Of a stretch of 25,780 nucleotides of DNA, positions 4,785 through 11,982 are shown in pieces. Both the position numbers and the translations under genes were made by a program. The stretch comes from an uncultured Pseudomonadales bacterium (GTDB lineage: Bacteria > Patescibacteriota > Microgenomatia > UBA1400 > CAYNBK01), in assembly GCA_964395485.1 (NCBI GenBank), contig CAYNBK010000001.1:1-25780 (forward strand). The letters are read 5' to 3'. Each line of letters begins with the position of its first letter. The stretch's first letter is position 1. The notes under the pieces were generated by a model. It worked only from the letters and a program-made list of their open reading frames with translations, ran no database searches and was not told the DNA's origin.

Positions 4785-5711
4785 ATGAATACAAAAACAA
4801 AAAACGGAAACGATAATAAAAAAGCCGATACTGACAAAAAAGTAAACAGCCAAAAAAATGATTACAAGCTCACCTGGCTTCAGGACAAAACTTTTGAACT
4901 GGAGCTTACTGTCCCAAAAAGTGAAATTTCCAAAGCTTATAAAGAAGTACTGGCAGAATTTGCCAAAAACACCGAACTTCCCGGTTTTCGCAAGGGTATG
5001 GCGCCAGCCAAATTGGTAGAAGACAAGGTAGGGAAAAACAAAATATATAAGCATATTATTGACCATGTTGTCCCACTGCATTACAGCAACGCCGTCAGAC
5101 AATACGGCCTTAAACCGATTGTTAATCCAAAAATAATTGACTTGAAAATGCCAGAAGAGGCAGATTGGCTGATAAAGCTTAGTTCCTGTGAAGCCCCGCA
5201 AATAAAGCTGGCCGACTACAAAAAAGAAGTTGCCGCCATAAATGCCAAAGATAAAATCTGGGTACCGGGCAAAGACGCGACGGAAAAGAATAAACCGGAC
5301 CGCGGCCAAAAACTGACCGCAATAGTCAAAAAACTGCAGGAAAGTATCGAAGTAAAACTGCCGCAGATGCTTTTGGATTCGGAGCGCGACCGCATGCTTT
5401 CCCGCTTGCTAGCGGAAATAAATAAACTTGGGATTACGTTGGACCAATATGTTCAAGCTAACGGTAAAACAGTAGAAAGCCTAAAAAAAGAATATGAAAA
5501 TGTCGCCCGCAGAAACCTGCAAACCGAGTTTATCCTGCAAGAAATAGCCATGACCGAAAAAATTCAAGTTTCAGAGGAAGAAAAAACAGCATACTTGTCC
5601 CAGATAAAAGATGAAGAAAGCAAAAAACAACTATCTACTCCTGAACAGCAAGCATACCTCGGGCTAAGCCTAGTAAGGCAAAAAACTATTGACTTTTTGC
5701 TTTCCATTTGA
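4785..5711 (+). CDS. tig: Trigger factor, short form apparently lacking the PPIase domain
   Basis: Ribosome-binding signature LPGFRKGMAP, C-terminal SurA-like domain (VKLPQMLL...LDQYVQANGKT...ILQEIAMTEKIQVSEEE). Only 308 aa. Confidence 0.9.
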   Translation: MNTKTKNGNDNKKADTDKKVNSQKNDYKLTWLQDKTFELELTVPKSEISKAYKEVLAEFAKNTELPGFRKGMAPAKLVEDKVGKNKIYKHIIDHVVPLHYSNAVRQYGLKPIVNPKIIDLKMPEEADWLIKLSSCEAPQIKLADYKKEVAAINAKDKIWVPGKDATEKNKPDRGQKLTAIVKKLQESIEVKLPQMLLDSERDRMLSRLLAEINKLGITLDQYVQANGKTVESLKKEYENVARRNLQTEFILQEIAMTEKIQVSEEEKTAYLSQIKDEESKKQLSTPEQQAYLGLSLVRQKTIDFLLSI

Positions 5712-5742
5712 TAAAATCCGCCAAATTAGCTGATTTTAATAT

Positions 5743-6426
5743 ATGGACGATATTTTTTCAAAAAACTACCCTCTTACAAACAGCAGCAAGAAAAAAAAGA
5801 CTGCGGTTCAATCTCAAAATTTTATTGAGGCTGTTAGGGATATGGGCGGATCTATCGGCGGTCAGGTAAAAAACCTTGGCTCAGATGTTGCCAGGGGGGC
5901 AATAGATTCACTCTTTGGCAAGGCACCAAGCAATCAAGACAATCAAAACCCAAATAATTATCAAACACCGCAAAACCCCAATCAACCTTTTAATTTTGAG
6001 GAGTATCTTTTTAACCGCGAAAAGCAAATCCGACAACAGGAGCGAAGTTTTGCCTCTCGTATGAGGGAAAATGAAAAAGTATTGTATAATAGGGGAGATG
6101 TAGAGACCAAAAAGCAAATTCGGTGTGTACAGGAAGAGATCGTCAAAATCATCAAAGAAAGCAAAGAATTAGCTACGGAATTGATCGAAGCGGAAAGAAC
6201 CGTCAGCACCACCATTGTTTCTGCTGGCACTTATCATCTAAATTTTTTTGCCAGAGTAAGAAACCTGCTTATTATCGCCAGAAAAAGACTGAGTGAATCT
6301 AAAAGCTGGCTTGAGCTTTTTAACTCCAGACAGCACCGCAAAGGTCTATACTGGAACAGTGTTAAAAAATCCGGCACCAAGTTTATGCTCTCACAAGAGC
6401 GCTATATGGCAACCCAGGCCGGCTAA
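5743..6426 (+). CDS. Hypothetical protein (possibly DUF5660-like, from memory and unverified)
   Basis: 227-aa ORF with an N/Q/P-rich linker, a coiled-coil segment and C-terminal KKSGTKFMLSQERYMATQAG. Confidence 0.6.
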   Translation: MDDIFSKNYPLTNSSKKKKTAVQSQNFIEAVRDMGGSIGGQVKNLGSDVARGAIDSLFGKAPSNQDNQNPNNYQTPQNPNQPFNFEEYLFNREKQIRQQERSFASRMRENEKVLYNRGDVETKKQIRCVQEEIVKIIKESKELATELIEAERTVSTTIVSAGTYHLNFFARVRNLLIIARKRLSESKSWLELFNSRQHRKGLYWNSVKKSGTKFMLSQERYMATQAG

Positions 6427-6482
6427 TAAATTAGCCAGTGCTGAGCAAAGCCGAAGCGCAGTGTAGCCAAGCAACTTTAAAT

Positions 6483-6545
6483 ATGATTAAAAACTTACAA
6501 AAATTATACTTTTACTTTTACGCCTTAGTCAGGAGGGTAAAGTAA
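6483..6545 (+). CDS. Putative attenuator leader peptide MIKNLQKLYFLLYALVRRVK (20 aa)
   Basis: 5 Leu, 2 Tyr and 1 Phe codons. The LLYAL codons overlap segment 1 of the hairpin set. Tandem TAA TAA stop. Confidence 0.7.
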   Translation: MIKNLQKLYFYFYALVRRVK

Positions 6546-6601
6546 TAATGTAGTTTTTTCAAAAATATTATTCCAAACCCCTCCTATTGGAGGGTTTTTT
6601 T
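6514..6601 (+). promoter_or_regulatory. Ribosome-mediated transcription attenuator (1:2, 2:3, 3:4 structures)
   Basis: 1:2 is TACTTTAC 6514-21 / GTAAAGTA 6537-44. 2:3 is AGGAGGG 6531-37 / CCCTCCT 6579-85 plus AATAATG 6544-50 / TATTATT 6566-72. 3:4 is the terminator. Confidence 0.75.
6575..6601 (+). terminator. Intrinsic terminator of the attenuator
   Basis: CCCTCC-TATT-GGAGGG followed by T7. Confidence 0.85.
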
Positions 6602-6626
6602 ATGGTGTTGAAAGGAGGTGATAAAT

Positions 6627-6812
6627 ATGTGTAAAGTCGAAAATCATCCGCGAAAAATAGAAGAAATGCTGGCTGAAGATCAAAATATGAAACCGCCAGA
6701 GCCCATTCTGACAGCAGAAGAAAAAGAAAAGCTCAAACAGAGACCAAGAACTTGTGCGGCTGCAAATTGGGGCCCAATGGGCGGATGGAGTAATTTAAAT
6801 AAAGGGAGGTAA
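6627..6812 (+). CDS. Unknown 61-aa protein
   Basis: Strong SD AAAGGAGGTG at 6611-20, 6 nt before ATG 6627. The track's GTG start at 6618 lies inside the SD. Confidence 0.7.
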   Translation: MCKVENHPRKIEEMLAEDQNMKPPEPILTAEEKEKLKQRPRTCAAANWGPMGGWSNLNKGR

Positions 6813-6814
6813 GT

Positions 6815-6901
6815 ATGTTTATAGACTATATTACACCCTCAAGTATGGAATATTTTCAACTTGAGGGTGTATCTTTTTTAAGATACAATAACTCATTATG
6901 A
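6815..6901 (+). CDS. Putative 28-aa uORF MFIDYITPSSMEYFQLEGVSFLRYNNSL
   Basis: SD GGGAGGT 6804-10. The stop overlaps the aminotransferase start (ATGA). Spans a 13-bp hairpin. Confidence 0.35.
   Translation: MFIDYITPSSMEYFQLEGVSFLRYNNSL
6832..6879 (+). terminator. 13-bp perfect inverted repeat plus T-tract (terminator or operator)
   Basis: TACACCCTCAAGT 6832-44 / ACTTGAGGGTGTA 6859-71, then TCTTTTTT. Confidence 0.7.
6861..6889 (+). promoter_or_regulatory. Sigma70-like promoter of the aminotransferase
   Basis: TTGAGG-17 nt-TACAAT, 8 nt before ATG 6898. The -35 lies in the right arm of the inverted repeat. Confidence 0.5.
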
Positions 6902-8070
6902 AGTATTCTTTTGCCCTAAGAGCCAGAAACATGCAAACTAGCATGCTGCGTGAACTACTAAAACTTACTGATAGGCCTGGTCTTATCTCTATGGCTGGCG
7001 GCTTACCTGCTCCGGAAAGCTTTCCGCTGAAATTGATACTAAATTTAACCCGACTGGTGATTGCTAAATATGGCGCCAATGCCTTTCAATACAGTCAAAC
7101 TGAGGGTTTTTTACCCTTAAGAACCGCTTTAGCCGTTTACCTTAACCATCATCATATTAAATGCAAAACCGAAAATCTTATTATCTCCAGCGGCTCCCAG
7201 GGAATTCTTGATACTATGGGTAAAATTTTTATCAACAAGGGGGATAAGATTGCCGTCGAAGCTCCCACTTATCTGGGGGCCATTCAGGCTTTTAATGCAT
7301 ATGAGCCAAAATATATCAGTCTGAAAACCGATGAAAATGGTATTTTGCCAAATCACTTAGCACGAGTTTTAACAAAGCACCAAGTAAAATTAATTTATCT
7401 TAACCCAACTTTCCAAAATCCCAGCGGTCGGACCTTAAGCAAAGAAAGAAGAATACAGGTGGCAAATATTATAAAAAAACATCGTGTTTTACTGTTAGAG
7501 GACGACCCTTATTCCAGCCTCAGATTTAACGGCAGGGCATTAAGGCCGATTATGAATTTTGCTCCGGAAAATACGGTTTATACCAGCACTTTTTCTAAAA
7601 TATTTGCTCCGGGCTTGAGGGTCGGTTACGCCATTGCTCCGGATAAAGTGGCAAAAATGCTGGTACTAGCCAAGCAAGGCATAGATTTGCACAGCGGCAC
7701 TTTTAGCCAGGCATTAGCGGCCGAATATATTCTGGGGGCTTATATGGATAAACAAATCAAAAAAAACATCAGGCTTTATGCTCCCAGAAAGCAGGCGATG
7801 ATTAAAAATTTGGCAAAATATATGCCGGCTGGCTTTAAATGGTCAAATCCTGATGGGGGGTTGTTTGTTTGGGTTGAAGGGCCAAAAGATTTTGATTCAA
7901 CTAAGTTTTTCCAAAAAGCCATTAACACCGGCGTAGCTTATGTTCCGGGCACATATTTTTATACCAAAAAAGGCGCGGGTAAAAATACCATAAGATTGAA
8001 CTTCTCCAATGTCAATGAAAAAAACATTCAAAAAGGAATAAAAATATTGGCCAATATTATAAAAAACTGA
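6898..8070 (+). CDS. PLP-dependent class I/II aminotransferase (LysN/ARO8-like, no wHTH)
   Basis: ISMAGGLP, SGSQGILD, NPTFQNPSG, EDDPY, PLP lysine in STFSKIFAPGLRVG, IRLNFS. Confidence 0.92.
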   Translation: MKYSFALRARNMQTSMLRELLKLTDRPGLISMAGGLPAPESFPLKLILNLTRLVIAKYGANAFQYSQTEGFLPLRTALAVYLNHHHIKCKTENLIISSGSQGILDTMGKIFINKGDKIAVEAPTYLGAIQAFNAYEPKYISLKTDENGILPNHLARVLTKHQVKLIYLNPTFQNPSGRTLSKERRIQVANIIKKHRVLLLEDDPYSSLRFNGRALRPIMNFAPENTVYTSTFSKIFAPGLRVGYAIAPDKVAKMLVLAKQGIDLHSGTFSQALAAEYILGAYMDKQIKKNIRLYAPRKQAMIKNLAKYMPAGFKWSNPDGGLFVWVEGPKDFDSTKFFQKAINTGVAYVPGTYFYTKKGAGKNTIRLNFSNVNEKNIQKGIKILANIIKN

Positions 8071-8163: not shown

Positions 8164-8177
8164 AAATATGCTATAAT

Positions 8178-8345
8178 GGGTTTATTGTCTGTTTGTATAT
8201 GGCTTTACCAACCATAAAGTTCGATGGAATCGGACACAGACAAGGGGCAAACCAGCCCAAAAAATGGGGTTAAATGAGTATATTCAGAGTGGAACCGTGA
8301 TTTATATCACCTCTGTACCGAAAGGGCAGGGGTGTTTGTTTTATT
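8178..8345 (+). ncRNA. T-box riboswitch, probably Thr-specific
   Basis: Antiterminator CAGAG 8285-89 / CTCTG 8311-15, 7-nt bulge TGGAACC, GTGAT/ATCAC. Overlapping terminator CACCTCTGT 8308-16 / GCAGGGGTG 8326-34 plus T-tract. Stem I TTGTCTGT/ACAGACAA with GATGGAA distal loop. Candidate ACC specifier at 8251-53. thrS lies downstream. Confidence 0.85.
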
Positions 8346-8357
8346 AGGAGGCAATAT

Positions 8358-11928: not shown

Positions 11929-11956
11929 GGCAAAAGATCTTGAATGATCATATTTT

Positions 11957-11982
11957 GCCCTCCCTTAGGAGGGCTTTTTTTT
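11957..11982 (+). terminator. Intrinsic terminator after rplT
   Basis: GCCCTCC-CTTA-GGAGGGC followed by T8. Confidence 0.9.

Follow-up and report, generated by a model that had tools for sequence, protein, structure and literature searches.

In Escherichia coli, pheA and pheST lie behind the attenuators pheL and pheM, in which a leader peptide containing Phe codons precedes RNA able to form the alternative helices 1:2, 2:3 and 3:4, the last of these being a terminator with a U run, whilst the ilvGMEDA operon lies behind a leader-peptide attenuator and includes the aminotransferase gene ilvE, the product of which performs the last step for the sensed amino acids. Bacteria of the candidate phyla radiation (CPR, or Patescibacteria) have tiny genomes and few known regulators and take most of their building blocks from other cells; to our knowledge, how they sense nutrient supply is largely undescribed. 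Here we analyse a 25,780-nucleotide (nt) stretch of DNA (contig CAYNBK010000001.1, the whole of which we call the window), in which an element at positions 6483–6626, lying downstream of a gene for a DUF5660 protein and upstream of an aminotransferase gene, has the layout of such an attenuator. We consider it likely that positions 6483–6601 form a ribosome-mediated transcription attenuator which senses Tyr and Phe by reading charged tRNA-Tyr and tRNA-Phe, because the register between codons and fold fits, an orthologous copy is present in a related locus (L008), and in a wider class of such elements the codons of the leader correspond to the genes that follow. Attenuation of this kind is a textbook mechanism; what is new is where it would occur and what it would control.

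The element follows the logic of E. coli trpL, in which termination results when the leader is fully translated or is not translated at all, and read-through results when the ribosome stalls at the control codons over segment 1. It differs from trpL in the sensed amino acid and in the target, and the start of its transcript probably lies within or ahead of the gene upstream, with no dedicated promoter. A run of aromatic codons, three alternative helices and a U-run terminator are common to the pheA and pheST leaders and the window element, whereas in the latter the codons alternate between Tyr and Phe, the pairing arms are Shine–Dalgarno (SD)-like GGAGGG sequences, and a mini open-reading frame (ORF) and a second SD follow the terminator. 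With ilvGMEDA it has in common a leader-peptide attenuator and an aminotransferase in the same arrangement, but that operon senses Leu, Val and Ile, is a full biosynthetic operon, and its aminotransferase is of a different fold class. Nearest in codon content is the aroR leader upstream of aroF in Corynebacterium glutamicum which, as far as the work of Neshat et al. (2014) is summarised in PMC11802643, has Phe-Tyr-Phe control codons at which ribosome stalling raises transcription of the downstream aromatic-metabolism gene. Both are short leader peptides with mixed Phe and Tyr codons; however, aroR belongs to the Actinobacteria and its target is a 3-deoxy-D-arabino-heptulosonate 7-phosphate (DAHP) synthase, whilst the window element lies in CPR/Microgenomates DNA before a 61-amino-acid (aa) orphan ORF and an aminotransferase, the two share no sequence similarity, and the window leader has no SD. 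Attenuators are also found before non-biosynthetic genes, as in E. coli pheST (PMC11802643).

No Rfam family matched the window at its gathering threshold. Below threshold, the element matches the Phe, Leu and Trp leaders and, equally, small RNAs that contain terminators: Phe_leader (RF01859) reaches 28 bits where its gathering score is 55, so that the element is not a member of this family by sequence or structure, Leu_leader (RF00512) scores 24.6 bits against 50, and Trp_leader (RF00513) 17.5 bits against 41. The structural features by which a classical leader-peptide attenuator is recognised are nevertheless found: a short ORF, a cluster of control codons, a Rho-independent terminator, mutually exclusive helices, and a register that joins them.

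The leader ORF (Table 1) is present with the 20 codons that the original prediction, made from the DNA letters and their translations, had given it. The peptide had been read as containing LYFLLYAL, which is wrong at two residues, the actual run being Tyr-Phe-Tyr-Phe-Tyr, flanked by single Leu codons and with no Leu pair anywhere in the leader. Because of this misreading, the sensed set had been taken as Leu, Tyr and Phe, and is here corrected to Tyr and Phe only. Runs of at least five aromatic codons are rare in the window, this one being unique among the plus-strand frames and one of two over all six frames. The leader stop ends 14 nt past the start of the first GGAGGG, within the range of 9–19 nt common in the class described below. 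This GGAGGG is a copy of the terminator 3′ arm and sits 41 nt upstream of the terminator, the stem of which has six base pairs, five of them G-C, before the seven T residues (T7); only two canonical intrinsic terminators occur in the window, of which this is one. The strong SD and ORF that had been described as following directly are both there, and since no promoter can be placed in the interval from the T run to ATG 6627, the 61-aa ORF would be expressible only via read-through. A mini-ORF also starts here, its stop falling 5 nt beyond ATG 6627. It has counterparts in L008 (MTKGGENYEP, then stop) and, with a TTG start, in L095, whilst in many class members the main gene itself begins at this position, and the mini-ORF may have a role in the element.

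Folding confirmed that the three alternative helices claimed originally (1:2, antiterminator, and terminator with T7) are present. The minimum free energy (MFE) structure of the free RNA combines the 1:2 helix (6499–6526 with 6533–6558) and the terminator, at −33.5 kcal/mol (z −2.67). When segment 1 is removed the fold switches to the antiterminator, with AGGAGGG (6531–6537) pairing to CCCTCCT (6579–6585) and enclosing the local hairpin 6544–6551/6565–6572. To place this switch relative to translation, we folded the RNA 3′ of the ribosome for each leader codon with either terminator or antiterminator forced, and varied the 3′ edge of the ribosome from +10 to +17 nt. Stability favours the antiterminator only when codons 9–12(13) (Tyr, Phe, Tyr, Phe), which form the aromatic run, occupy the A site. 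The terminator wins at codons 1–8, because the 1:2 helix still forms, and from codon 13/14 through the stop, because AGGAGGG is then covered. The probability of the antiterminator reaches 0.95–0.96 at codons 9–10, that of the terminator 0.83–0.88 at codons 1–5 and from 13 onward, and at all ribosome edges from +10 to +17 nt an antiterminator window of four to five codons remains on the aromatic run.

These folds suggest the following course of events. Transcription probably arrives by way of the DUF5660 gene upstream, or begins at a promoter within that gene, and a ribosome would translate the 20-codon leader. Where Tyr- and Phe-tRNA are plentiful, the ribosome would reach the stop at 6543–6545 and cover AGGAGGG, the terminator would form, and transcription would stop at T7 (around position 6600); without translation, the 1:2 helix would sequester AGGAGGG and the terminator would form too. 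A ribosome stalled on Tyr-Phe-Tyr-Phe (codons 9–12) would instead cover segment 1, allowing AGGAGGG to pair with CCCTCCT once the latter is transcribed, and the polymerase would read through. The read-through RNA would carry the 61-aa ORF and then, by coupling, a 28-aa ORF and the aminotransferase, an ARO8/LysN-like enzyme with which Tyr and Phe could be formed from the corresponding keto acids. An attenuator of this kind would surely gate the 61-aa ORF; that it also controls the aminotransferase is likely but uncertain, because the gene has its own leaderless-type promoter.

Table 1 Parts of the attenuator element and of the region behind it, with positions in the window
Feature	Position	Strand	Details
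Leader ORF	6483–6545	+	20 codons and TAA; ATG start; peptide MIKNLQKLYFYFYALVRRVK (translation)
Segment 1	6499–6526	+	5′ arm of the 1:2 (anti-antiterminator) helix, overlaps the control codons; free-RNA MFE
Control codons	6507–6521	+	TAC TTT TAC TTT TAC (Tyr-Phe-Tyr-Phe-Tyr), codons 9–13 of the leader
Segment 2	6531–6558	+	Contains AGGAGGG (6531–6537); antiterminator 5′ arm and part of the 1:2 3′ arm
Local AU hairpin	6544–6572	+	AAUAAUGU/AUAUUAUU (6544–6551/6565–6572), nested within the antiterminator; folding
Intrinsic terminator (segments 3:4)	6579–6601	+	CCCTCC 6579–6584, loop TATT, GGAGGG 6589–6594, T7 6595–6601
Mini-ORF	6602–6634	+	10 codons, MVLKGGDKYV then stop, read from the sequence; start 7 nt past the terminator GGAGGG arm
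SD of the 61-aa ORF	6614–6621	+	GGAGGTGA, strong; 12 nt past the T run, then ATG 6627
61-aa orphan ORF	6627–6812	+	SD-led; first gated gene (predicted)
28-aa bridging ORF	6815–6901	+	MFIDYITPSSMEYFQLEGVSFLRYNNSL; SD-led; 21% Phe+Tyr; stop overlaps the aminotransferase ATG (ATGA)
Two adjacent hairpins	6835–6886	+	6835–6868 and 6869–6886, inside the 28-aa ORF; −29 kcal/mol, z −4.16
Promoter-like site	6861–6889	+	TTGAGG-17-TACAAT, leaderless type; ends 8 nt before the aminotransferase ATG
Class I aminotransferase	6898–8070	+	PF00155; PH0207/MsAT/LysN/KAT-II subgroup; probable second target

The same layout recurs at the same place after the DUF5660 gene in L008/L009, whose DUF5660 protein is 61% identical to that of the window. 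The leader in L008 has 23 codons (MKNYLLNFTTFTFIPKVWRVVSV) and is Phe-rich; its GGAGGG is followed, after exactly 41 nt as in the window, by CCCTCC-TTAC-GGAGGG-T7, and behind the terminator lie a 10-codon mini-ORF, an SD (GGGGGTGA) and a 125-aa orphan ORF, with tRNA-Val, a membrane protein and ThrRS further downstream and no aminotransferase. A conserved TTTACTTTTA block yields Phe codons from both frames, and the window and L008 ORFs are in the same frame relative to GGAGGG. Two further loci (L001 and L002) are the same strain and thus uninformative for covariation; conservation of the element rests on two sequences, the window and L008/L009, which are too few for covariation statistics. A metagenome scan anchored on the terminator and downstream SD recovered three loci, none of them a close ortholog. 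Outside the DUF5660 locus, L095 has a Val/Ile leader (MENNIDQRNGVVIGLVICAGG) with the same terminator stem and T run as the window, after which a near-identical stretch (TTGAAAGGAGGTGA-N5-ATGTGT) opens a 64-aa orphan ORF with a Met-Cys start, as in the window, and L065 has a Phe leader in an arrangement similar to that of L095.

Scanning the pattern GGAGGG-N30-55-CCCTCC-N3-6-GGAGGGTTTTT over one genome per GTDB species returned 83 matches in 82 loci, where by our own rough estimate about one would be expected by chance. An ATG ORF of 10–40 codons ending 6–35 nt past the first GGAGGG accompanies 51 of the 83 matches, whereas such an ORF is seen at 12% of random positions taken from these loci and at 16% of other GGAGGG sites, and 23 of the 83 leaders are aromatic-rich, compared with 0.5% and 1.4% in these respective controls. 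Many of the matches are in CPR (Roizman-, Gottesman-, Collier-, Woese-, Pace- and Levybacteria, Parcubacteria and Saccharibacteria), the remainder in Dehalococcoidia (Chloroflexota) and further phyla. Counting both GTDB and metagenome loci (L013–L097), dozens of unannotated leader-peptide attenuators of the GGAGGG/CCCTCC type are found in CPR and Dehalococcoidia. Like the window element, they have a leader that ends 9–26 nt past the first GGAGGG, some 30–55 nt, CCCTCC-loop-GGAGGG and a T run, and L008, L065 and L095 in addition have an SD and a small orphan ORF after the terminator. They differ in codons and targets, and are analogues rather than alignable homologues, except for L008 and, in the segment from terminator to start codon, L095. 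In many members the GGAGGG arm of the terminator doubles as an SD and the gene begins right after the T run. None of 17 related class loci reached an Rfam gathering score, and a full-text literature search found no open-access paper on attenuators in CPR/Patescibacteria.

In many CPR genomes the codons of the leader match the gene behind it. Leaders with HHH precede HisRS in two Roizmanbacteria loci (L055 and L081), an Arg-rich leader precedes ArgRS in a parcubacterium (L021), FYYY precedes a synthetase of the Tyr/Trp class (L091), and WW precedes both a class-I Trp/Tyr-type synthetase, read as TrpRS, with a trpE-like ORF in Pacebacteria (L045) and an anthranilate synthase in L020. Amongst the aromatic leaders, YFFFYFY stands before a PfkB kinase and a DAHP-synthase-like gene (L083), YFFYYY before a biopterin-dependent aromatic hydroxylase (Phe-hydroxylase) domain (L077), FYFYYFY before chorismate mutase (L026), and the aromatic-rich MKIYMKSKMIFRAASYFWGYFYFYPSSCGRAGL before DAHP synthase (L061). 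In Collierbacteria (L023), the leader MTNGLFFFTFVYFNRKAVREGIKK is followed by a phosphoenolpyruvate-mutase-family gene, against which is packed an aminotransferase 39% identical to that of the window (E-value 2e-77). A Trp leader (MKKMVNDYVWWNPLYLEG) lies ahead of a predicted lipoprotein in L096/L097 (~2770–3080 in L097), where it directly follows a gene whose C-terminal end resembles, by eye, the Trp-repressor-like YerC/YecD family.

The window itself has few SD sequences. Only 4 of 24 start sites carry one (6627, 6815, 8358 and 15190), whilst a −10-like hexamer stands 6–13 nt before the start codon at 9 of the 24, the leaderless arrangement, which suggests that leaderless mRNAs are widespread in this organism. 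Two of the four SD-led starts, those of the 61-aa ORF (6627) and a 114-aa ORF (8358), are behind long leaders, and a third is that of the 28-aa ORF (6815), a distribution that fits 6483–6626 as a real regulatory 5′ leader. Homologues of the upstream DUF5660 protein bear the names Candidatus Beckwithbacteria, Microgenomates group and Patescibacteria group, and membership of the CPR is therefore supported.

Of the genes presumed to be controlled, the 61-aa ORF has no relatives that would identify it. A HMMER search of 1.84 billion representative proteins returned, besides the ORF itself, a single spurious match to a propeller-repeat protein, and there was no match in Pfam, NCBIfam, PHROGs or PADLOC, so that membership of a known family was rejected; a structured RNA in this region was likewise rejected (z +1.16). 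Phe and Tyr are absent from its sequence (P about 0.006), which would suit a protein produced during Tyr/Phe shortage, although hydrophilic peptides tend to be aromatic-poor anyway. The aminotransferase matches PF00155 with an E-value of 2e-40 over profile positions 34–359 of 361, and residues 5–389 match the PDB entries 1x0m and 3aov (1e-100), 1wst (4e-98) and 2egy (LysN, 4e-80), its nearest solved relatives being Pyrococcus PH0207, the Thermococcus multiple-substrate aminotransferase and Thermus LysN. Judged by the depositors' molecule names, this family acts on aromatic amino acids among others. Among 5.8 billion proteins no homologue exceeded 59% identity, and the contexts of homologues are mixed, comprising an ilv operon (L007, Dojkabacteria), radical SAM genes (L003) and the aromatic leader in L023. 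The substrate range is probably broad, and it is the leader codons that best point to a Tyr/Phe role here. The closest named homologue (L003, 1720–5191; 58% identity) stands in a three-gene row with a MocR-type GntR–aminotransferase fusion and a radical SAM protein, which suggests another role of the family in other bacteria. In L003 and L005 radical SAM genes adjoin the aminotransferase; that the ORFs of 61 and 28 aa are remnants of such a radical SAM/SPASM gene was considered and rejected: tblastn against the radical SAM proteins of L003/L004 gave nothing significant, and a BLASTP comparison with the ORF upstream in L005 yielded no more than an eight-residue NWGP match (E-value 0.012). In L005, a perfect 16-nt inverted repeat (CTTATTATTTAGTATA ... 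TATACTAAATAATAAG, 418–466) lies upstream of the promoter-like TTGACA of the aminotransferase ortholog; a Tyr-rich ORF that overlaps it lacks an SD and is probably just a consequence of the repeat being rich in TA.

It is possible, if less probable than joint control, that the attenuator is a true Tyr/Phe attenuator of the 61-aa ORF only, and the aminotransferase an independent, constitutive leaderless neighbour. The gene carries its own promoter-like site, 8 nt before the ATG with a −10-to-ATG spacing as at other genes of the window, and this weighs against control by attenuation, as do the strong double hairpin between the 61-aa ORF and the aminotransferase, the L008 and L095 elements, which are followed by a small orphan and then a tRNA gene or new promoter and no aminotransferase, and the ortholog in L005, which lacks such a leader. 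However, 6812–6898 contains no canonical terminator; the hairpins at 6835–6886 are not one, the U run being in the loop of the second. The promoter-like site is itself overlapped by the 3′ arm of the first hairpin. Furthermore, the 28-aa ORF exactly bridges the stop of the 61-aa ORF and the aminotransferase ATG and looks built for coupling: the last two codons of the 61-aa ORF supply its SD, its stop overlaps the next start, and the three ORFs therefore appear chained for translational coupling. An aromatic leader also precedes, independently, the homologous aminotransferase in L023. Our reading is that the aminotransferase would have a basal leaderless promoter and, in addition, attenuator-controlled read-through, translated there via the 28-aa ORF. 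Tyr-Phe codons of the 28-aa ORF fall within the loop of a strong hairpin, and this ORF may be a second control point. The original prediction had named both genes as targets: the 61-aa ORF does come first, whilst the aminotransferase is only probable, given its leaderless-type promoter and the lack of such a gene behind the L008 element.

Several observations weigh against attenuation, and some of them would suit a plain intrinsic terminator of a tig–DUF5660 unit, with a short ORF, a run of aromatic codons and a second GGAGGG that happen to lie upstream of it and a 61-aa ORF that is no gene, a reading we regard as improbable. Leader ATG 6483 has no SD, no −10 box and no clear promoter directly upstream, although candidate promoters lie at 6248–6275 and 5689–5717 and most genes in the window likewise lack an SD. 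The 61-aa ORF is an orphan and may be no real gene. An orthologous copy exists in one relative only, L008/L009: L011, whose DUF5660 protein is equally close (63% identical), has a plain terminator with no leader, a hairpin or terminator without leader also follows the DUF5660 gene in L010, and the element is absent from L010, L099 and L100 and lacking in the further DUF5660 relatives L098–L101, so that it is patchy. Of the related genomes, in which the original prediction had suggested looking for conserved Leu or aromatic codons, L008/L009 has an aromatic-rich leader with the same spacing. In L008 there is no stable 1:2 helix, the antiterminator being favoured at codons 1–14 and the terminator from codon 15, and the TTTACTTTTA block is read in different frames in the window and L008 leaders, the latter having no codon run. 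The energy gaps between the alternative folds of the window are modest (1–3 kcal/mol), although transcription of segment 3 ahead of segment 4 adds a kinetic bias toward the antiterminator. In 21 class members, the register test gave the expected codon window in around half and no antiterminator-favoured codon in about seven, probably because the true helices there are longer than the forced six base pairs, and the test is therefore not a general diagnostic or detector. Finally, the only other canonical terminator of the window (11957–11982, after rplT) has the same CCCTCC/GGAGGG stem, GCCCTCC-CTTA-GGAGGGC-T8.

A plain terminator would, however, leave unexplained the exact register between the aromatic codons and the fold switch, the leader ORF, 41-nt spacing and SD-led ORF conserved in L008, the strong SD after the T run with no promoter between them in a genome poor in SD sequences, and the fact that leader ORFs whose codons suit their targets are in excess throughout the class. 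A switch that is mainly translational (the hairpin masking the SD-like GGAGGG before ATG 6602) or trans-acting (TRAP, PyrR, T-box), with stalling not the signal, is most improbable: the terminator 3′ arm does double as an SD in many class members and a T-box-like leader seems to serve thrS in this genome, but in 6380–6950 T-box (RF00230) has no match at E-values up to 10 and PyrR and L10-leader score far below gathering, ATG 6602 opens a 10-codon ORF only, a GC-rich stem with T7 right behind it is the hallmark of transcription termination, and the concordance of codons and targets across the class points to leader translation as the sensor. For the Tyr/Phe attenuator, the core of the original claim of a complete trp-type attenuator in a CPR genome is retained, with the register, the L008 copy, the class concordance and the DUF5660 homologues in its favour, and what falls away is the sensing of Leu.

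Further features were noted in other parts of the window and in its relatives. The 8164–8357 region is probably a diverged Thr T-box leader before the SD-led 114-aa ORF (8358) and thrS, with a promoter (TGCTATAAT, 8169–8177), a conserved stem-loop sequence containing ACC (8207–8209), TCAGAGTGGAACCGTG (8284–8299), and a terminator-like CCTCTG...CAGGGG with a T-rich run (8310–8344). It is 78% identical to L011 1022–1231, which scores 33.3 bits for the Rfam T-box (E-value 7e-6; gathering score 93), whilst the window copy has no Rfam match at E-values up to 1. At the rplT stop begins a hairpin (GGGCAAAA, 11929–11936, with TTTTGCCC, 11953–11960), and because it overlaps the 5′ arm of the rplT terminator, the action of that terminator may depend on rplT translation. 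We also looked between rplT and pheS for a Phe leader like E. coli pheM and rejected the idea, as only the terminator and an ORF without Phe codons are present there. Among the DUF5660 relatives, L010 has tandem partial tRNA-like repeats (6880–7100) ahead of an intact tRNA-Val, and in L011 (783–845) the last ~21 nt of the DUF5660 gene are duplicated just past its stop codon.

A broader proposal, which as a whole we think rather unlikely, is that a leader peptide specific for an amino acid, together with a GGAGGG terminator, a mini-ORF and a small orphan protein led by an SD, constitutes a recurrent CPR module, that the orphans are perhaps starvation effectors, and that CPR rely widely on attenuation. 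Copies of this arrangement are found in the window (Tyr/Phe), L008 (Phe-rich), L095 (Val/Ile) and L065 (Phe), and their small proteins contain little of the amino acid that is sensed. If the proposal is true, these small proteins could act, for example, on the host or on uptake and not as biosynthetic enzymes, and CPR, with their few regulators, would match synthetase and salvage genes to host-derived amino acids by ribosome-mediated attenuation.

More narrowly, the locus and its analogues indicate that CPR read the charging of specific tRNAs via classical coupling of transcription and translation, and in response they appear to switch on synthetase genes, salvage genes and small orphan genes. 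The leader codons are, in addition, a cheap indicator, readable from sequence, of the amino acid that each downstream gene serves.

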